From Bauldia litoralis (GTDB lineage: Bacteria > Pseudomonadota > Alphaproteobacteria > Rhizobiales > Kaistiaceae): DNA of 32,000 nt. Below the pieces are notes generated by a model, which searched no databases, was not told where the DNA came from, and saw only the letters and a list, made by a program, of their open reading frames with translations. The position numbers and the translations under genes are program-made. The DNA lies in assembly GCF_900104485.1 (NCBI RefSeq), contig NZ_FMXQ01000004.1, positions 355,898 through 387,897 on the forward strand, written 5' to 3'. Positions 3 to 19,362 of this stretch are shown piece after piece (within the stretch, counting starts at the first letter, position 1; each line of letters starts with the position of its first letter).

Positions 3-1217
3 ATGCGCATTCCGTTCATCAACGGTCGTCCGACGGCGACGCCGGAGGAGACCAAGGCTTCGGCGACCGCCGGGCTGATCGCCTTCCAGACTCATGGCGC
101 GCCGGCCTGGACGCCGCGCGACTATGCGGCGCTGGCCCGCGAGGGCTATGCGAAGAACGCCATCGTCTACCGCTGCGTGCGGATGATCGCCGAGGCGGCG
201 GCCTCCGCGCCGTGGCTGCTCTATGAAGGGGCGGCCGAACTCGACGATCATCCGCTGCTGGCGCTGCTCGCCCGCCCCAACCGCCGCCAGGCCGGGCGCG
301 ACTTTCGCGAGACGCTGTTCGGCCACCTGCTGGTTTCCGGCAACGCCTATGTCGAGGCGGTCGTCGCGGAGCCCGACGGCTTTGGCGATGCCGGGGGGGC
401 GCCGCGCGAACTACACGCGCTGCGGCCGGACCGGATGAAGGTGGTGCCGGGGCCGGACGGCTGGCCGGTCGCCTTCGAATACACGGTCGGCGGACGGACG
501 GTGCGCTTCGCCGATCCGGGCGAGGGGCGGCTTTCGCCGGTCCTCCATCTGGCGCAGTTCCACCCGCTCAACGACCACTACGGTTTCGCGCCGATCGAGG
601 CGGCGGCGGTGGCGCTCGACATCCACAATGCGGCGGGGGCCTGGAACAAGGCGCTGCTCGACAACGCGGCCCGGCCCTCCGGCGCGCTGGTCTACCGGAC
701 CAGGGAAGGCGGCAACTTGTCGGCCGACCAGTATGAGCGGCTGAAGGCGGAACTCGAGACCGGTTTCTCCGGCGCCCGCAACGCCGGCCGGCCGCTGCTG
801 CTCGAGGGCGGACTCGACTGGAAGGCGCTGTCCCTGACGCCGAAGGACATGGACTTCCTCGCCGCCAAGAACGGCGCGGCGCGGGAGATCGCGCTGGCCT
901 TCGGCGTGCCGCCGATGCTGCTCGGCATTCCCGGCGACAACACCTATGCCAACTACAGGCAAGCCAACCTTGCCTTCTGGCGCCAGACCGTGCTGCCGCT
1001 CTGCGGCCGTCTGGCCGAGGCGCTGACCGCGTGGCTGGCGCCGGCCTATGGCGACGGGCTGCGCCTGTGGTTCGACGCCGACCAGATCGAGGCGCTGGCG
1101 AGCGAGCGCGAGGCGCTGTGGGGCCGGGTCGCGGCGGCGGACTTCCTGACCGTCAACGAGAAGCGCGCCGCGGTCGGCTATGGGCCGGTCGAGGACGGCG
1201 AGGGGATGGGCCGATAG
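3..1217 (+). CDS. Phage/GTA portal protein, HK97 family (RcGTA g3-like)
   Basis: 404-aa ORF. N-terminal KASATAGLIAF...APAWTPRDY and the FGVPPMLLG...NTYANYRQAN block resemble HK97-family portals. It is the first gene of a canonical head-tail order. ATG 3 is 2 nt from the window edge, so the true start could lie upstream. Confidence 0.9.
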   Translation: MRIPFINGRPTATPEETKASATAGLIAFQTHGAPAWTPRDYAALAREGYAKNAIVYRCVRMIAEAAASAPWLLYEGAAELDDHPLLALLARPNRRQAGRDFRETLFGHLLVSGNAYVEAVVAEPDGFGDAGGAPRELHALRPDRMKVVPGPDGWPVAFEYTVGGRTVRFADPGEGRLSPVLHLAQFHPLNDHYGFAPIEAAAVALDIHNAAGAWNKALLDNAARPSGALVYRTREGGNLSADQYERLKAELETGFSGARNAGRPLLLEGGLDWKALSLTPKDMDFLAAKNGAAREIALAFGVPPMLLGIPGDNTYANYRQANLAFWRQTVLPLCGRLAEALTAWLAPAYGDGLRLWFDADQIEALASEREALWGRVAAADFLTVNEKRAAVGYGPVEDGEGMGR

Positions 1218-2063: not shown

Positions 2064-2588
2064 GTGACCGCAACCGAACGGAAATTCGCGCCGGCCGACC
2101 TCGCCGTCGAGGCCGACGGTACCTTTTCCGGCTATGCCAGCCTGTTCGGCAAGGCCGACCTCGGGCGCGACGTCGTGCTGCCCGGCGCCTTCCGCGCTTC
2201 GCTGGCGCGGCGCGGGCCGGCCGGCGTCAGGATGCTGTTCCAGCACGATCCCAACACGCCGATAGGCGTCTGGAAGACGATCGCCGAGGACGGCCGCGGC
2301 CTGCATGTCGCAGGGCAGCTCGCCGCCGGGGTGGCGAAGGCGCGGGAGGTGCTCGCCCTGATGCGGGCCGGGGCGCTGGACGGGTTGTCGATCGGCTACC
2401 GGACGGTGCGCGGCCGCACCGACGCCAAGACCGGCATCCGCAGCCTGATCGAGGTCGACCTGTGGGAGATCTCGGTGGTGACCTTCCCGATGCTGCCCGA
2501 GGCGCGGGTCGAGGCGGTGAAGAGCGACGACCGCGCCGCGCTGCTCGACGCGATACGCCGGGCAACGGTGGCGATGCGGGCGGGGTAG
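2064..2588 (+). CDS. HK97-family prohead (maturation) protease, RcGTA g4-like
   Basis: GTG 2064 follows AGGAGA (2051-2056). The 174-aa product has FSGYASLFG..D..RDVV.PGAF and MLFQHD..PIGVW motifs of HK97 prohead proteases. The upstream part of track ORF 1749.. only translates repeat elements. Confidence 0.9.
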   Translation: MTATERKFAPADLAVEADGTFSGYASLFGKADLGRDVVLPGAFRASLARRGPAGVRMLFQHDPNTPIGVWKTIAEDGRGLHVAGQLAAGVAKAREVLALMRAGALDGLSIGYRTVRGRTDAKTGIRSLIEVDLWEISVVTFPMLPEARVEAVKSDDRAALLDAIRRATVAMRAG

Positions 2589-2595
2589 GGGCGGC

Positions 2596-3273
2596 ATGAC
2601 AGAGGCGAGGACCGCCGAACGGATCGCGCTGATCGCCGCGATCCGCGCGGCGACGGCCGCGATGCTGCCCGACACAGCGGCGACACGGTTCCACAAGGCG
2701 ATGGACCGGCTCGGCCGCCTGCTGGCCGAGCGCGACCTCGAGCGGCGGTACAATCCGGACTGGGCGTCGCAACCGCGTGTCCCGAGCGGCAATCCCGGCG
2801 GTGGTCGATGGACGGATGGTGGTCCGTCGATCATCGGAGAGGAACTTAACCCGTCAGCGTTCGAGGAGCAGGTTTCGGACGAACCGATTGGCGAAGAGCC
2901 TCCAGGCGTTCCGACCGTGCGGCCGGAGAAGGCACGTCGACGCAACAGATACGTGAAAGAGATCGCCCGGTGGCTCCTGCGGGGCACGCGGGTCGGTGTT
3001 CGTCTTTCGCCAATCGGTCGGGCCTTGGACATATACGAGGCGGGGCTCTGGATTCACGACCATTGGTCCTTCATCGAGGCATACCAAGACGAGCCAAAGT
3101 CTCTGGGAGAACTACGTGCGGCTGCCTCTCAGCGGAGAAAGGGATACGATATCCATCATATTGTCGAACGAGCGTCGGCCCTTGAGGATGATTTCCCTTT
3201 GTCGCGAGTCGATGGCGCGGAGAACCTAGTGAGTATTCCGACTTTGAAGCATTGGGAACTCAATCGTTGGTAA
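2596..3273 (+). CDS. Modular protein with C-terminal HH...N...H (HNH/EndoVII AHH/GHH-like) domain; putative nuclease toxin, truncated by an in-frame TAA (frame continues to 3396)
   Basis: ATG 2596 is 8 nt after the protease stop. The N-terminal ~75 aa are host-like in GC, followed by a Gly/Pro junction RVPSGNPGGGRWTDGG and then a low-GC C-terminal part. Signature residues are DIHHIV (HH codons 3154-3159), AENLVSIP (Asn 3223-3225) and KHW (His 3250-3252). TAA at 3271-3273 is followed by 40 more open codons ending at TGA 3394-3396. Confidence 0.55.
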   Translation: MTEARTAERIALIAAIRAATAAMLPDTAATRFHKAMDRLGRLLAERDLERRYNPDWASQPRVPSGNPGGGRWTDGGPSIIGEELNPSAFEEQVSDEPIGEEPPGVPTVRPEKARRRNRYVKEIARWLLRGTRVGVRLSPIGRALDIYEAGLWIHDHWSFIEAYQDEPKSLGELRAAASQRRKGYDIHHIVERASALEDDFPLSRVDGAENLVSIPTLKHWELNRW

Positions 3274-3392
3274 GAAATGAAAAACCCAAACTTCGGCTGG
3301 CTGACGCCAAGGCAATATGCCCGGGGGAAGGATTGGCCCACGCGCCTTAGACTAGGACTGGATGGGCTGAGAGACATAGGAGTCCTTGAGCG

Positions 3393-3764
3393 ATGAGTGG
3401 GGCTAGTCTCGACAGGAGATCGATCGAGGAACTCGTCGACCGCTACGCCGCGACGGGTGTGGCGCAAGACGAGGCCGAACTCAATGACGACATCGGCAAA
3501 TACAACCGCCTCGTCGACGACATCATCGCCGTGGAAGCGGAGCTGAAATCGCGAGCTGGCGATCAGCGCACGGCACTAATGAAGCTGTACGACCACCCCA
3601 ACATGCAGGTCCGCCTAAATGCTGCGCACGCCACGCTTGCGGTCGCACCCGAGGCGGCCCGGGCGCTGCTGATGACCATCCGGGAGTCGCGGTGGATGCC
3701 TCAGGCCATGCAGGCCGGGATGTCCCTGCGGAACCTGGAGAACGGCGTCTATCGGCCGGATTGA
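3393..3764 (+). CDS. DUF2019-like all-helical small protein; candidate immunity/antitoxin partner
   Basis: 123-aa ORF. LYDHPNMQVRLNAAHATLAVAPEAARALL and PQAMQAGMSLRNLENGVYRPD match my memory of DUF2019 proteins (HEAT-like helices). ATG 3393-3395 overlaps TGA 3394-3396 of the extended upstream frame (ATGA junction). GC is lower than the flanks. Confidence 0.7.
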   Translation: MSGASLDRRSIEELVDRYAATGVAQDEAELNDDIGKYNRLVDDIIAVEAELKSRAGDQRTALMKLYDHPNMQVRLNAAHATLAVAPEAARALLMTIRESRWMPQAMQAGMSLRNLENGVYRPD

Positions 3765-3790
3765 GTGATCGAGGGTTTTCGAATTGGGTG

Positions 3791-4155
3791 GGGCGCTCGA
3801 CGGGTTGTCGATCGGCTACCGGACGGTGCGCGGCCGCACCGACGCCAAGACCGGCATCCGCAGCCTGATCGAGGTCGACCTGTGGGAGATCTCGGTGGTG
3901 ACCTTCCCGATGCTGCCCGAGGCGCGGATAGAGGCGGTGAAGAGCGGCGACCGCGCCGCGCTGCTCTCCGCGATCCGGCCGGAGACGGCGGGGATGCGGG
4001 TGGGCTAGGGGCGGCGGCATGACAGAGCGAGGACGCCGAACGGTCCGCGCTTATCGCCGCGATCCGCACGGTGACATGCGCGCATCCCGACCCTGAAGCA
4101 CTGGGAGCTTAACAGCTGGTATGAAAGGCGGAATGGAGACTATGACTGGCTGACG
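3791..4155 (+). pseudogene. Degenerate second cassette: duplicated protease 3' end plus frameshifted 5' end and 3' end of a sister toxin-like gene
   Basis: 3791-4070 aligns to 2371-2650 at an offset of 1420. 2379-2507 equals 3799-3927, with 129 of 129 identical. Identity then falls to about 83% (2521-2580), and indels follow the ATG (4019). 4093-4155 encodes LKHWELNSWYERRNGDYDWLTP, homologous to 3244-3310 of the intact copy. The middle of the gene is deleted. Confidence 0.85.
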
Positions 4156-4185
4156 CCTCTGCTGGCGCGCCCGAAGATCGGATTG

Positions 4186-4698
4186 TCACTTGGCAGGATG
4201 CTCGCGAGGCTGCTGCTCGCGCTCTTGCCGCAGCTCTTCCGTCACTTTGTCCGCCAGTCGCCACAGAACGCGGGCGAGACTTTCTGCAAGATCTATATAC
4301 GGGGCGATTATTTCGGGACTAAGAGGCGTGGCTTTGCCGTCAAAACGGTGCTTCCCTCGGAAGGTGACCACCTCAAAATTTCCATCTTTGTTGGTGCCTA
4401 TCACGCCATGCGCGAGGTCGTTGCGGAATGCCACAAGCCGGCCCGCTTCATTGGTGAGTTTCAAGGTGTCGGCGTATGCTTCCTTCGTCCAGTGCTTCTT
4501 GGCGAACGCATCAAGTAGTTCGAGTTTCGATCTCGCCTGCATGCCGCTGAGGACCACTTGCGCCTGAAAGCCGGATAGTGCCAGAGCGGCGGCGACGGCA
4601 GTATTGAGTGCCAGGTCGAAGCCTGAGAAGTTCAGAAACAGCGCGCCGACTTGATGGGCCATCGCAATCTTGATTTTTGGATCTGGTTCCTTGGGCAT
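4186..4698 (-). CDS. HEPN-motif protein (Rx4H: R-N-D-L-A-H-G), putative RNase toxin / abortive-infection-type effector
   Basis: 170-aa ORF on the minus strand, predicted all-helical. FRNDLAHG is encoded at 4408-4425 (reverse complement CGC AAC GAC CTC GCG CAT) and fits the canonical R-N-x-x-x-H HEPN active-site motif. GC is about 53-58%. No obvious MNT or antitoxin partner is adjacent. Confidence 0.6.
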   Translation of the reverse strand: MPKEPDPKIKIAMAHQVGALFLNFSGFDLALNTAVAAALALSGFQAQVVLSGMQARSKLELLDAFAKKHWTKEAYADTLKLTNEAGRLVAFRNDLAHGVIGTNKDGNFEVVTFRGKHRFDGKATPLSPEIIAPYIDLAESLARVLWRLADKVTEELRQEREQQPREHPAK

Positions 4699-4872: not shown

Positions 4873-4983
4873 CTACTTCCTCTTAATGGTCTCGACGACA
4901 TGTGTGTTGGGTTTCCCCGTTGCCGTCTTGACCGTGGTGAAGCGACCGGTGACGGCGCTTCTCCCGATTTTGCTGGTGGCCAT
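4873..4983 (-). CDS. 36-aa basic mini-protein MATSKIGRSAVTGRFTTVKTATGKPNTHVVETIKRK
   Basis: Below the ORF-track length cut-off. ATG (reverse complement of CAT 4981-4983) lies 7 nt after a consensus AAGGAG (reverse complement of CTCCTT 4991-4996). The S-x-x-T/S-G-R-F-V/T pattern resembles a widespread family of tiny bacterial proteins of unknown function. It has the same orientation as the HEPN gene, 174 nt upstream of it. Confidence 0.45.
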   Translation of the reverse strand: MATSKIGRSAVTGRFTTVKTATGKPNTHVVETIKRK

Positions 4984-5233: not shown

Positions 5234-5326
5234 ATGGTCAGAGAGGTGCGGGTGCGGGGCCTACGCCTGACGATCGAACCCAAGTGATTCTGGAAATGCG
5301 GTCGGGTTTTGCCCGGCCGTTTTTTT
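5234..5326 (+). ncRNA. Candidate ~90-nt small RNA or leader bounded by the promoter-like site and an intrinsic terminator
   Basis: The predicted start is ~5233-5236 and the end is the T-run at 5326. There is no ORF with an SD inside. GTCAG (5237-5241) can pair with CTGAC (5266-5270). No match to any RNA family I recognise. Confidence 0.25.
5299..5326 (+). terminator. Rho-independent terminator
   Basis: CGGTCGGG (5299-5306), loop TTTTG, CCCGGCCG (5312-5319). This is an 8-bp stem with one G-U pair, followed by T7 (5320-5326). Confidence 0.6.
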
Positions 5327-5520: not shown

Positions 5521-6765
5521 ATGACGCATGCTCCCCAGCCTGCGCCGGAGGCCAAGGCGGCCGATGGCGAGATGACCAGTGCCTTCGAGACCTTCAACCG
5601 GACCTTCGCGGCGTTTCGCGCCGAGAATGACGACCGGCTCGAGCAGATCGAGCGCAAGCTTTCCGCCGACGTGGTGACGGTCGACAAGGTCGATCGCATC
5701 AACCGGGCGCTCGATGAGCAGAAGCGGGCTATGGACCAACTCGTCCTCAAGGGGCGGCGGCCGGCGCTGGAGACCGGCGGATCGCGGGTGGTGACCTCGC
5801 CGGAGCACAAGGCGGCCTTCGAGGCCTATGTGCGCGGCGGCAACGAGGAGGCGCTGCGCGGTTTCGAGCAGAAGGCGCTGGCGGTGGGTTCCGACGGCGG
5901 CTACGTCGTGCCGGAGGAGACCGAGCGCGAGATCGGCCGGCGGCTGGCGAGCGTCTCGCCGATCCGGGCGATCTCCGGCATCCGCCAGGTGTCGTCCAAC
6001 GTCTACAAGAAGCCCTTCGCCATCACCGGTGCGGCGACCGGCTGGGTCGGCGAGACCGCGGCGCGCACCGAGACGGCGGCGCCGACGCTGGCCGAACTCT
6101 CGTTCCCGGCGATGGAACTCTACGCCATGCCCGCGGCGACGGCGACGCTGCTCGACGACAGCGCCGTCGACATCGACGCCTGGATCGCCGACGAGGTCGA
6201 GACCGTCTTCGCCACGCAGGAAGGCACGGCCTTCGTCACCGGCGACGGCACCAACAAGCCGAAAGGGTTTCTCAGCTACACCACGGTGGCGGAAGCCTCC
6301 TGGGCCTGGGACAAGATCGGCTACCTGGTCACCGGCGTCTCCGGCGCCTTCGCCGCCTCCGACCCGTCGGACGAGCTGATCGACCTGGTCTATGCGCTGA
6401 AATCCGGCTACCGGCAGAACGCCCACTGGGTGATGAACCGCTCGACGCAAGGGGCGGTGCGCAAGCTCAAGGACGCCGACGGCAACTACATCTGGCAGCC
6501 CTCGGCGGTGGCCGGCGGCACGCCGACGCTGATGAACTTCCCCGTCGCCGAGTCGGAGGACATGCCGGACATCGGCGCCGACACGTTCGCCATCGCCTTC
6601 GGCGATTTCCGCCGCGGCTACCTGGTCGTCGACCGGGTCGGCGTGCGGGTGCTGCGCGATCCCTATTCCGCCAAGCCCTACGTCCTCTTCTACACGACCA
6701 AGCGGGTCGGCGGCGGCGTCCAGGATTTCGACGCCATCAAGCTCCTGAAATTCGGCACGTCCTGA
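5521..6765 (+). CDS. Major capsid protein, HK97 family (RcGTA g5-like)
   Basis: ATG 5521 follows AAAGGA (5507-5512); an in-frame ATG at 5494 is the alternative. The 414-aa product has an N-terminal coiled delta-domain-like region (FAAFRAENDDRLEQIERKLS) and blocks such as GGYVVPEE, TGWVGE and FVTGDGTNKPKGFL typical of HK97-fold capsids. Confidence 0.92.
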   Translation: MTHAPQPAPEAKAADGEMTSAFETFNRTFAAFRAENDDRLEQIERKLSADVVTVDKVDRINRALDEQKRAMDQLVLKGRRPALETGGSRVVTSPEHKAAFEAYVRGGNEEALRGFEQKALAVGSDGGYVVPEETEREIGRRLASVSPIRAISGIRQVSSNVYKKPFAITGAATGWVGETAARTETAAPTLAELSFPAMELYAMPAATATLLDDSAVDIDAWIADEVETVFATQEGTAFVTGDGTNKPKGFLSYTTVAEASWAWDKIGYLVTGVSGAFAASDPSDELIDLVYALKSGYRQNAHWVMNRSTQGAVRKLKDADGNYIWQPSAVAGGTPTLMNFPVAESEDMPDIGADTFAIAFGDFRRGYLVVDRVGVRVLRDPYSAKPYVLFYTTKRVGGGVQDFDAIKLLKFGTS

Positions 6766-6826: not shown

Positions 6827-7037
6827 CGGGGCCGCCTGACTCTTTGCCCGGTGGATGCGCGGTGCGTCCGTCGAGGCTCCGCTGCGCGGAGCACCTCCGG
6901 ATGGCGGGGGAGGTGCCTAGGACAGCGGTTGTCATGCTGAGGCGCGCGCTGGAGGCGCGCCTTGAAAACGCGCGGGACCGTGGCCACCGGCAGATCGCCG
7001 GCGGGGACGAGTCTCGCCGAAGACGCTCCCCACACAC

Positions 7038-7145
7038 CGTCATCCTCCGGCTTGACCGGAGGATCGGTCTTTACCCGGCGCTCCGCTCGATCTGCAGGCG
7101 CCGTGCCGGCGAACAGCGATCCTCCGGTCAAGCCGGAGGATGACG
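7038..7145. repeat. RIME/REP-like element, family 2: two 29-bp hairpins in inverted orientation
   Basis: CGTCATCCTCCGGCTTGACCGGAGGATCG (7038-7066) is the exact reverse complement of 7117-7145. Each arm is itself a hairpin. Confidence 0.85.
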
Positions 7146-7259
7146 GTTGAGTGGGTGATGGTGTCGCGTGCGCTGGATGGCGGCGCACAGGCTGGATCGC
7201 GGCAGCGGACCCTCCGGGCGGAACGCGCCCATCAATCGCAAAACGGGAAGGACCTCACC

Positions 7260-12730: not shown

Positions 12731-12907
12731 CGTCATCCCGGCGAAAGCCGGGATCCATCGATGATCGTGTCGTCCGTGCGTCGTGTCGGGGGCTGCGGCG
12801 GTGACGGATTCCGGCTTTCGCCGGAATGACGGGGTTGATCTGACCACCGCCTGAACCCCACCCACCACCGCTTCGCGGCGGTCCCCCCTCCCCGGTTCGG
12901 GGAGGGA
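12731..12907. repeat. Cluster of intergenic palindromic elements: a family-2 hairpin pair plus a family-1 copy
   Basis: CGTCATCCCGGCGAAAGCCGGGATCC (12731-12756) and GGATTCCGGCTTTCGCCGGAATGACGG (12806-12832) are inverted copies with stem-preserving substitutions. 12853-12907 is identical over 55 nt to 1912-1966. Confidence 0.85.
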
Positions 12908-18474: not shown

Positions 18475-18516
18475 TCCTCCGGGCAGATCCACCGATCCAT
18501 GAAGGAAGACCTCGCC

Positions 18517-19362
18517 ATGCGTGTGAGCGACAAGGGGCTGGCGTTCATCGCCGACCATGAAGGCGTCGTGACCCGGGCCTACCGCGACGTGGCCGGCGTC
18601 TGGACCATCGGCGTCGGTCATACGGCGGCGGCCGGGGCGCCGAAGCCACGGGCCGGAATGACGATCACCCGGGCCGAAGCCTTCGCCATCCTAGCGCGCG
18701 ACCTGCCGCGCTACGAGCGTCGGGTCGCCGCAGCACTCGCCGCCATCGGCCAGCGGGCATTCGACGGCGCTGTCTCCTTCGACTTCAACACCGGCGCGGT
18801 GCATCGCGCCTCCTGGGTCAAGGCCTATCGCGCCGGCAACCTGACGGCGGCCCGGCTCGGCCTGATGAAATGGGTCAAGGCCGGCGGCCGGACGGTGCGC
18901 GGGCTGGTCCGGCGGCGGGAGGCCGAGGCGCGGCTGATCTTCGACGGAGACTACGGGCATGCCACGGTCACGGCGGAGCCGCGCGCCGACGTCACGACCT
19001 ACCAGGCGCAACTGGCGACACTCGGTTTCCCGGTCGGCACGCTCGACGGCATTGCCGGTCCGGCGACCAGGGCCGCCGTGCTGGCCTACCAGCGCACACA
19101 TGACGACCTGGTCGACGATGGCATCGCCGGCCCGGCGACACGCGCCAGCCTTGCCCGCGACATTGCCGCCCGCAAGCGCGTCGCCGAAATCGGCGCGGGA
19201 TCACTCGCGGTGGGGGGAACGGCCGGGATCGCGGCGGGCAGCGATCCGCTGCTGGTCGGCGTAGCGGTCGGGCTCGTCGTTCTTCTTCTCGCCAGCGGTT
19301 TCTTCGCCTGGCGCTACCGCGGCGAGCTGCGCCGTTTTCTTCGCACCATCAGAGGAGTGTGA
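18517..19362 (+). CDS. GH24 lysozyme with a peptidoglycan-binding repeat and a C-terminal TM anchor (endolysin)
   Basis: An E-8aa-D-5aa-T catalytic motif lies in ADHEGVVTRAYRDVAGVWTIGVGHT. PG_binding_1-like LDGIAGPATRAAVLAYQ and DDGIAGPATRASL are present. The C-terminal hydrophobic helix is LLVGVAVGLVVLLLASGFFAW. ATG 18517 follows AAGGAAG; ATG 18499 is the alternative start. Confidence 0.85.
   Translation: MRVSDKGLAFIADHEGVVTRAYRDVAGVWTIGVGHTAAAGAPKPRAGMTITRAEAFAILARDLPRYERRVAAALAAIGQRAFDGAVSFDFNTGAVHRASWVKAYRAGNLTAARLGLMKWVKAGGRTVRGLVRRREAEARLIFDGDYGHATVTAEPRADVTTYQAQLATLGFPVGTLDGIAGPATRAAVLAYQRTHDDLVDDGIAGPATRASLARDIAARKRVAEIGAGSLAVGGTAGIAAGSDPLLVGVAVGLVVLLLASGFFAWRYRGELRRFLRTIRGV

Follow-up and report, generated by a model that had tools for sequence, protein, structure and literature searches.

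The internal proteins IPI–III and Alt of phage T4 reach the capsid through a short terminal targeting sequence that the prohead protease removes, and this cargo is injected together with the DNA; the HK97 protease reportedly has a C-terminal encapsidation signal, in work said to come from Duda and colleagues in 2013. Toxin domains of the AHH/WHH/LHH type, belonging to HNH/EndoVII, are said to be part of polymorphic toxin systems, in an account attributed to Zhang and colleagues in 2012. The present study concerns a 32,000-nucleotide stretch of the Bauldia litoralis genome (assembly GCF_900104485.1, contig NZ_FMXQ01000004.1, positions 355,898 to 387,897; hereafter the window), in which a toxin-like open reading frame (ORF) and a small DUF2019 gene lie between the prohead protease and major capsid genes of a gene transfer agent (GTA) cluster. 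The closest precedent is given by the MuF toxins (Jamet et al. 2017, PMC5576092), which share with this locus a constant, head-linked N-terminus, a variable toxin C-terminus and a small immunity ORF directly downstream, as well as a place in the head/packaging module by the portal gene, and which are presumed to be encapsidated and injected. For polyvalent proteins, the second relevant group, Iyer et al. (2017, PMC5512222) predict capsid packaging, injection alongside the DNA and cleavage into units by peptidases that are either embedded or supplied by the virion. On balance, we regard the window element as probably a polymorphic toxin–immunity cassette residing in an RcGTA-type head operon, with the toxin presumably serving as packaged and delivered cargo; the polymorphic-toxin part of this reading is well supported by comparison among homologous loci.

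Constant N-termini joined to exchangeable C-terminal domains

A preliminary description of the window had proposed a polymorphic toxin layout, in which a constant N-terminus, a junction motif, a variable C-terminus and a small downstream gene are set within a block of GTA head genes, and comparative evidence now strongly favours this proposal. Searching 1.84 billion representatives with a profile built on the first ~75 residues brought up 4965 proteins, whose short members (65–340 aa) have the helix and motif in common, typically as LLRLKWLAAATRFEIALRRHxxALKAGFNPDQPRVPxGNPDGGQWT, and diverge fully beyond it. Among 188 complete ORFs with the constant N-terminus at the loci fetched, the C-termini form 35 clusters, so that swapping after GGxWT, anticipated in the preliminary description, is evident. 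Among the short proteins, one C-terminus is an RNAse_A_bac domain of the CdiA-CT kind (P0156; E 8e-12, exceeding the gathering score) and another is deaminase-like, with an HAE...CxxC signature and an Imm1 gene downstream of it (P0093); others are Cys-rich or without a recognisable domain. Other C-termini are followed by other small ORFs. A word-indexed search with the 78-aa N-terminus alone returned only 4 close relatives. Alternative C-termini, a co-varying downstream small gene and displaced toxin tips and immunity genes, three of the features by which a polymorphic toxin system is recognised, are present.

We picture the toxin as a three-part protein, in which a helix of ~50 aa would be followed by a disordered NPxQPRVPxGxPxGGxWT junction and an exchangeable C-terminal domain (Table 1). 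The AlphaFold (AF2) models, which represent the homologues P0002 and P0026 (with 44–46 homologues) rather than the window sequence, place the junction motif inside a disordered stretch at about residues 51–110, followed by a helical segment and then by the compact C-terminal domain, for which 540 homologues were collected, none of them annotated in Pfam. Strand 1 of the modelled core lies at YDIHH and strand 2 at LVRIP, and the helix begins at TLKHWELN. H187, H188, E191, N210, P215, H219 and W220 are invariant or nearly so, first in 45 and then in 114 homologues, and their recurrence can for this reason hardly be attributed to chance. The region around the HH pair weakly matches LPD23, a polyvalent-protein domain, in 12 of the 114 members, and a further weak match, to Xre_MbcA_ParS_C, is seen for the ~20 residues that immediately precede the C-terminal helix (GGLSPREYLRGK...) in 24 of them (best E 7e-4). 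This second segment corresponds to positions 3310–3393 (residues ~239–266), which are removed by the premature stop described below, and the fold matches below significance likewise include MbcA and ParS; Xre_MbcA_ParS_C is the toxin-binding domain of RES/ParT antitoxins.

The toxin domain is also found under a different N-terminus. A P0029-like subgroup (~330 aa; L164/L165 9001–10526) has another, unrecognised N-terminal domain and a variant motif, DPKHPGWPAGTPGGKGGQF, and lies in ordinary chromosomal contexts beside a longer DUF2019 gene (179 aa). The toxin domain is accordingly used with at least two N-terminal modules.

A separate resemblance links the toxin to its upstream neighbour. In the window, the first ~23 codons of the toxin and the last ~20 codons of the protease are alike (ALLDAIRRATVAM against ALIAAIRAATAAM), as reflected in repeat D2 (2516–2577 versus 2604–2665, 74% nucleotide identity) and in a local alignment score of 44, compared with a mean of 22 for shuffled sequences, 0 of 2000 of which reached 44. 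We considered whether the toxin N-terminus might mimic a C-terminal targeting tail of the protease throughout the family and rejected this idea, as the resemblance reaches significance in just two loci, the window and L001, and 12 others lack it. Since other clades do not have it, the likeness is treated here as a local duplication and not as a general signal.

The small downstream gene, which the preliminary description had taken as the second half of a toxin/immunity layout, encodes a DUF2019 protein scoring 119 bits against PF09450 (cut-off 23.3) over profile positions 1–104 of 105, and it also matches PDB 2I9C, the structural-genomics protein RPA1889 (E 1.5e-28). A DUF2019 gene directly follows the toxin domain in 96 of 100 copies (79 loci, on contigs representing one genome per species), and at least one of the four copies lacking it, L040, sits within ~80 nt of the end of its sequence. 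Extra DUF2019 genes and toxin fragments accompany many loci, L001 having three consecutive DUF2019 genes. Because of this linkage, the overlap between the two genes and the structure of the arrays, DUF2019 is likely to be the cognate immunity protein; the literature searched linked no function or role to the family.

The biochemical identity of the C-terminal domain is supported by several converging, individually weak observations. The preliminary description had likened it to AHH/GHH/LHH-type HNH domains. The HH/N/H residues and the beta-beta-alpha topology of this comparison held: a catalytic-type His at the end of strand 1, an Asn and a His in the following helix (H187, H188, N210, H219), the residues by which a His-Me finger is recognised, occur in the expected order, and together with the predicted strand–strand–helix arrangement they have the pattern and topology of a beta-beta-alpha-metal (His-Me finger) site in the models. 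The Asn-to-His spacing of 9 agrees with what we take to be that of the colicin E7/E9 DNase motif. Family membership at threshold did not hold in the profile hidden Markov model (HMM) comparison with HNH/EndoVII models, in which Pfam AHH (PF14412) was matched weakly by 14 of 114 members (best E 0.024) and WHH by one, none reaching the gathering score, while the window protein gave no AHH match at E ≤ 1. The toxin with its stop repaired had no match in Pfam, NCBIfam, PADLOC or PHROGs; PDB sequence-profile searches with alignments A1 and A3 yielded none, or chance matches at E ≥ 0.7; and Foldseek gave no match at E ≤ 0.001. The top 8 fold matches in the PDB include the HNH effector Cap5 and the T5 SciA HNH endonuclease, and the top 50 in BFVD include at least 11 named HNH endonucleases, all of them non-significant. 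As these three weak signals (AHH/WHH, Cap5/SciA and the BFVD matches) agree, we consider the domain a likely His-Me finger (HNH/EndoVII-like) nuclease.

The window allele itself appears to be damaged. The nucleotide-level observations of the preliminary description on the ORF itself were reproduced, including the start of the ORF shortly after the protease stop (TAG 2586–2588, ATG 2596), the HH (3154–3159), Asn (3223–3225) and His (3250–3252) codons, the fall in GC after the RVPSGNPGGGRWTDGG motif from 0.735 (2601–2800) to 0.51 (3101–3300), and the TAA at 3271 that interrupts a frame extending to 3396. Beyond this stop, 41 more codons continue in frame to a TGA at 3394–3396, which overlaps the ATG at 3393 of the next ORF as ATGA. 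A homologue search found 48 proteins, the full-length ones of 250–265 aa (for example P0002, 65% identity) aligning across the read-through segment, in which P238, R239, Y241, G254, L258, G262 and L264 are nearly invariant. Given that these homologues read through, that the corresponding codon is TAC (Tyr) in metagenomic contig L168, 99% identical to the window, and that it is TAT in the remnant copy within the window, the TAA appears to be either a recent nonsense mutation or a sequencing error. The three closest alleles have different lesions: the nonsense codon in the window, an ATG-to-ATT start change in L168 (1161–1163), and indels in the 5' region of L007 (6900–7110), which may be long-read errors. 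The DUF2019 gene keeps an intact frame in the window and can be aligned over its full length in L007. Through its stop at codon 226 the window toxin is predicted to be inactive, with the immunity gene left intact, a state that suggests a lineage in which the toxin is decaying and immunity is retained.

Table 1. Coordinates of the cassette and of the flanking head genes within the window.
Feature	Position	Strand	Details
Portal gene	3–1217		PF04860; opens the window
Prohead protease, S78 (GTA g4)	2064–2588	+	PF04586 E 1.2e-34, TIGR01543; TAG at 2586–2588; upstream anchor gene
Toxin ORF as it stands	2596–3273	+	225 codons, ends at premature TAA; ATG 8 nt past protease stop
Constant N-terminal helical region, residues 1–51	2596–2748	+	P0002 model: single long helix at 6–50; common to proteins with unrelated C-termini
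Junction motif YNPDWASQPRVPSGNPGGGRWTDGG, residues 52–76	2749–2823	+	Q59, R61, G70, W72 invariant in alignment A4; predicted disordered, pLDDT about 50
Variable C-terminal domain (putative toxin), residues 152–266, split by stop	3049–3393	+	Alignments A3, A10; pLDDT 95–98 in both models
HNH-like core GYDIHHIVE...ENLVSIPTLKHW	3142–3270	+	Predicted strand, strand, helix
Premature TAA stop	3271–3273	+	Deletes 41 conserved residues
DUF2019 gene, predicted cognate immunity protein	3393–3764	+	PF09450 E 8.9e-35; ATG overlaps the toxin's original TGA
Duplicated protease 3' end, border of older displaced cassette	3790–4015	+	Repeat D1, 226 nt, 93% identity to 2370–2595
Remnant of older, divergent toxin allele	4019–4157	+	Frameshifted, without immunity gene
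Major capsid protein (GTA g5), downstream anchor gene	5521–6765	+	PF05065 E 8.5e-92

Cassettes at GTA head junctions and a possible function as head cargo

The toxin loci are concentrated around the head genes of RcGTA-type clusters. Across 78 distinct genome loci, all alphaproteobacterial and mostly from Hyphomicrobiales, RcGTA-type structural genes lie within 7 kb at 39 and are in every such case co-oriented with the toxin. We estimate the enrichment at more than 50-fold, because a GTA cluster with its flanks occupies well under 1% of such genomes. The commonest order is portal, protease, toxin, capsid, as in the window, and other cassettes occupy the terminase–portal junction (L166), the portal–protease junction (L005, L008, L013, L103, L113 and others) and the capsid–adaptor junction (L016, L100, L122, L153); none was seen among the tail genes (g7–g15) in the loci mapped.

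Between one cassette and the next, the 3' end of the head gene upstream is found again as duplicated fragments. These fragments derive from the portal gene in L113 and L146, from the capsid gene in L122 and L153, and from the protease gene in the window as well as in L007, L099, L109 and L134; in L109 at least six protease fragments alternate with three genes bearing the constant N-terminus. Orphan arrays occur at L001, L047, L074, L097, L098 and L109. The degenerate second copy in the window has the same construction, and here the preliminary description, which had it retain the first ~230 nt of the ORF, must be corrected: what is retained is 226 nt of the protease 3' end, followed by only ~70 nt from the ORF 5' end, which are broken by indels (4019–4086) and fused directly to ~75–90 nt of the ORF 3' part (4084–4157; 72% identity; IPTLKHWELNSWYERRNGDYDWLTP). 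The simplest reading of this architecture is that an incoming unit of head-gene 3' end, toxin and immunity gene recombines upstream and displaces the resident cassette. New cassettes would enter by homologous recombination, anchored in the conserved 3' end of the preceding head gene and in the constant 5' part of the toxin gene, and the older cassette would be shifted downstream to decay there, as the region 3790–4157 may have done.

The junction motif offers a possible link between the toxin and the interior of the head. The strongest matches to the N-terminal profile are giant proteins of 1000–4000 aa (P0053–P0062 are examples), in which K[FY][DN]PxQPRxPxGxxxGGxW, or a short QPRDxxGRW, recurs 3–11 times between domains such as ART-PolyVal, GNAT, NUDIX, topoisomerase IB and ADP-ribosyltransferase. 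These giants are the polyvalent proteins defined in the paper of Iyer and colleagues (2017, PMC5512222), the text of which does not mention the motif and contains no occurrence of the word 'linker'. One of them (L169, 6687–10751) is encoded directly after terminase and portal genes, and another (L170, 10001–13675) between a portal-MuF gene and a Zeta-toxin/Peptidase_S78_2 fusion that precedes the capsid gene. The motif is a candidate processing or docking signal. As the motif is shared with polyvalent proteins and predicted to be disordered, and as the S78 protease gene adjoins the toxin gene, our best mechanistic guess is that the toxin is packaged as head cargo and possibly cleaved at the motif. 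The suggestion of a cargo function in the preliminary description gains indirect support from the reuse of the motif in polyvalent proteins of phage head modules.

In the mechanism that we envisage, the helix and junction motif would bring the toxin into the procapsid as internal cargo, the junction could be cut there by the neighbouring S78 prohead protease, and the toxin would exit together with the DNA and damage recipients without the matching DUF2019 allele. A broader conjecture, which we regard as doubtful, is that RcGTA-type GTAs of Hyphomicrobiales are armed in general, so that toxins carried in the head, targeted by the ~75-aa module of helix and motif and possibly freed by the prohead protease, are delivered along with DNA and only recipients with the matching immunity allele in their own GTA cluster survive, which would amount to a greenbeard-like form of kin discrimination, and that the motif is a general head cargo/processing signal across tailed phages.

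Several observations weigh against the proposed explanation. Encapsidation is deduced here from gene context and a shared motif, and the GTA of the window is known from its genes. Half of the loci lie away from GTA genes, some by a lone terminase fragment and others in plain chromosomal contexts or free-standing toxin/DUF2019 arrays, so that linkage to head genes is not obligatory; packaging in trans would be compatible with these unlinked loci, as GTA accessory genes are often unlinked, and a cassette that merely inhabits the cluster would account for them equally well. The truncated window allele and the lesions in its two closest relatives seem to indicate relaxed selection on toxin function in this lineage. 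RcGTA DNA reaches the periplasm of the recipient and is taken up by competence proteins, so that a toxin acting in the cytoplasm would need a further entry step. The resemblance to the protease tail is limited to the clade of the window and hence provides no family-wide targeting signal. A terminator-like hairpin (5298–5320) and a gene on the opposite strand separate the cassette from the capsid gene and may disturb operon expression. Finally, profile searches of Pfam, NCBIfam and the PDB and fold comparison with Foldseek gave no significant match to a nuclease, and hhalign against the colicin E7/E9 DNases aligned only 10–15 columns around the HH pair with a probability below 2%.

The most serious competing explanation, which we judge unlikely but of real weight, is that the cassette is a mere passenger of the GTA cluster that is never packaged. 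Conserved and vertically inherited head genes would then serve as homology arms for its insertion, possibly with spread by GTA particles, it would benefit from expression confined to the lysing subpopulation, and the toxin would be released by lysis or act as an addiction module. Duplicated head-gene 3' ends flanking the cassettes are what insertion by homologous recombination predicts, and both the deduced character of encapsidation and the half of the loci found in ordinary chromosomal contexts or free-standing arrays fit this view. It leaves unexplained, however, why the linker motif of the constant N-terminus also recurs in polyvalent proteins, whose genes neighbour those for portal, MuF and prohead protease, and why insertions in the loci mapped are found only at head junctions from terminase to adaptor and not among tail genes that are equally conserved; moreover, the 70-aa N-terminus contains no receptor-binding or translocation domain such as free bacteriocins need.

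An improbable alternative retains packaging and assigns the protein another purpose, as an accessory effector that does not kill competitors. An injected nuclease of this kind might help the DNA that enters the cell, for example through nicks in the recipient chromosome that stimulate recombination or through attack on defence nucleic acids, as has been proposed for polyvalent proteins; the only task of DUF2019 would be to shield the producer until lysis. A location within the head module is suited to such a function, as is the motif held in common with polyvalent proteins, whose domains are believed to act against host defences at entry. The exchange with CdiA-CT RNase A and deaminase domains, the latter with Imm1, and the orphan immunity arrays are instead hallmarks of competition or kin discrimination, and a producer close to lysis would hardly need several immunity alleles.

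We consider it very improbable that the protein is neither enzyme nor toxin and has a structural or assembly role in the head, as a small scaffold-like or portal-associated factor with DUF2019 as its chaperone. The long N-terminal helix and disordered linker are scaffold-like, and the weak Xre/MbcA/ParS resemblance of the C-terminal ~20 residues would be in keeping with it, whereas the invariant His/His/Glu/Asn/His set in a compact, confidently predicted domain points to catalysis, and polymorphism, orphan arrays of the partner, absence from most GTA clusters and presence far from them would be unexpected for such a factor. Weakest of all is the more conservative option of the preliminary description, a phage-type accessory HNH endonuclease of the packaging machinery resembling the HK97 gp74-type terminase helpers, which is suggested by the HH...N...H motif and the location among packaging and head genes and which we reject on the basis of the DUF2019 pairing, the swapping of C-termini after an N-terminus held in common with RNase and deaminase toxins, the lack of a Pfam HNH match at threshold, the lack of any match to the toxin domain by tblastn in 50,697 phage records and a plasmid collection, the variable placement of the gene and its absence at most core-packaging positions, and the dispensability of an allele that is truncated in the window.

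The GTA cluster, the low-GC island and neighbouring signals

Judged by gene content and order, the cluster in the window is a canonical RcGTA-type head-tail cluster. Homologues of g3 to g15 are present in canonical, collinear order: 3' of the capsid gene follow adaptor, head-completion, tail-completion and tail-tube genes and then DUF2460, hub (with BR0599), NlpC/P60 and GTA_TIM 'megatron' genes, and a 202-aa ORF occupies the position of the RcGTA tape-measure gene. A phage-type lysozyme with a peptidoglycan-binding domain is encoded at 18499–19362 (+), ~1.5 kb past the megatron gene, and may be a lysis or entry enzyme of the GTA.

The gap between protease and capsid genes measures 2.9 kb, and the low-GC island within it extends from inside the toxin ORF to about 5300. 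Besides the cassette, the island contains on the opposite strand a 170-aa ORF (4186–4698), antisense to the GTA operon, with an RNDLAH (Rx4H) HEPN-like motif and a weak match to HEPN_MAE_28990 (Pfam, E 0.056), which may be an RNase or abortive-infection-type passenger gene; at L005, a weakly matching HEPN_RiboL-PSP gene likewise adjoins the GTA cluster. A 36-aa ORF, MATSKIGRSAVTGRFTTVKTATGKPNTHVVETIKRK, shorter than the cut-off of the ORF list, is also present on the minus strand (4873–4983). At the end of the island, 200 nt 5' of the capsid start, stands a strong hairpin resembling an intrinsic terminator (plus strand; 10 bp stem, 7 GC pairs, T7 tail), and the structure is predicted to block transcripts that would read from the protease gene into the capsid gene. 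The ~100 nt preceding this hairpin match no Rfam family, and the window as a whole gave no hit in Rfam or tRNA scans.

Repeated elements mark other gaps of the cluster. A 21-nt palindrome, CCCTCCCCGAACCGGGGAGGG, occurs three times (1816–1836, 1944–1964 and 12886–12906; 0.08 expected), exclusively in intergenic gaps of the GTA cluster, two copies lying in the portal–protease gap within a 54-nt inverted repeat (1786–1994) and the third 5' of g15; it is REP/MITE-like. A second inverted repeat, of 36 nt and 94% complementary, lies in the capsid–adaptor gap (7036–7147).

Significance and comparison with known systems

The literature searched contained no prior description of toxin cassettes in GTA head modules, of the toxin domain, of DUF2019 immunity or of the junction motif. 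The toxin domain family comprises more than 540 cluster representatives, those inspected being all labelled 'hypothetical', and no Pfam, NCBIfam, PHROG or PADLOC model covers it; for DUF2019, with its so far unexplained structure 2I9C, a probable role in immunity is now proposed. The motif shared by toxins and giant polyvalent proteins may be a packaging or processing signal that could be used to load capsids. Why bacteria keep GTAs that kill their producers is a long-standing question, for which the cassettes turn toxin delivery and kin recognition into a testable hypothesis; they suggest that particles may carry protein weapons besides DNA, and, if true, armed GTAs would constitute a selective force maintaining GTA clusters. 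Experiments are feasible because several cultured strains have apparently intact loci, including Pseudolabrys sp. Root1462, Blastochloris sulfoviridis DSM 729, Nitratireductor spp. and Mangrovicella endophytica.

The C-terminal domain of the toxin resembles the AHH/WHH/LHH-type toxin domains (PF14412, PF14414) in an HH dipeptide that ends a strand and is followed by an Asn and then by a His at the start of a helix, as well as in its C-terminal location within a polymorphic toxin paired with a helical immunity protein. It differs from them in that a further Glu is invariant (HHIVE), the hairpin contains a helical insert of 22 residues, and the C-terminus is extended by ~40 aa that are weakly Xre_MbcA_ParS_C-like, with the best AHH match remaining at E 0.024; the immunity family is DUF2019 rather than SUKH or an Imm family. 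The capsid-targeted internal proteins of T4 and HK97 find a possible parallel in the toxin N-terminus that copies the protease tail in the clade of the window only, with no sequence relationship between them.

The displacement of cassettes recalls the orphan arrays of CDI/Rhs systems, in which, in the account of Poole et al. (2011) as cited in PMC5576092, a new module displaces the resident one and leaves a fragment of 5'-constant region and old tip downstream, and in which a junction motif (VENN, DPxGL) likewise stands at the recombination border. Relative to the systems in that account, the homology arm here reaches into the 3' end of a portal, protease or capsid gene and duplicates it. With polyvalent proteins (PMC5512222) the toxin shares the linker motif, a gene position between portal and protease or capsid, and predicted packaging and processing. 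Those proteins have 2–15 effector domains in 1000–4000 aa and no dedicated immunity genes, whereas the toxin is ~265 aa long, has one effector domain and an immunity partner, and swaps its C-terminus between alleles. MuF toxins (PMC5576092) differ in several respects: no Phage_Mu_F/Phage_min_cap2 (PF04233/PF06152) or MuF3/4 match was found in the window protein or in the 45 and 114 homologues, the constant part here is ~75 aa of helix and linear motif compared with a MuF domain of ~300 aa, and the host is a chromosomal RcGTA-type GTA, with four head junctions occupied and gene ends duplicated, rather than a temperate phage. Taken together, these comparisons place the toxin–immunity cassettes of GTA head modules as a variant of the phage-head-associated polymorphic toxins.

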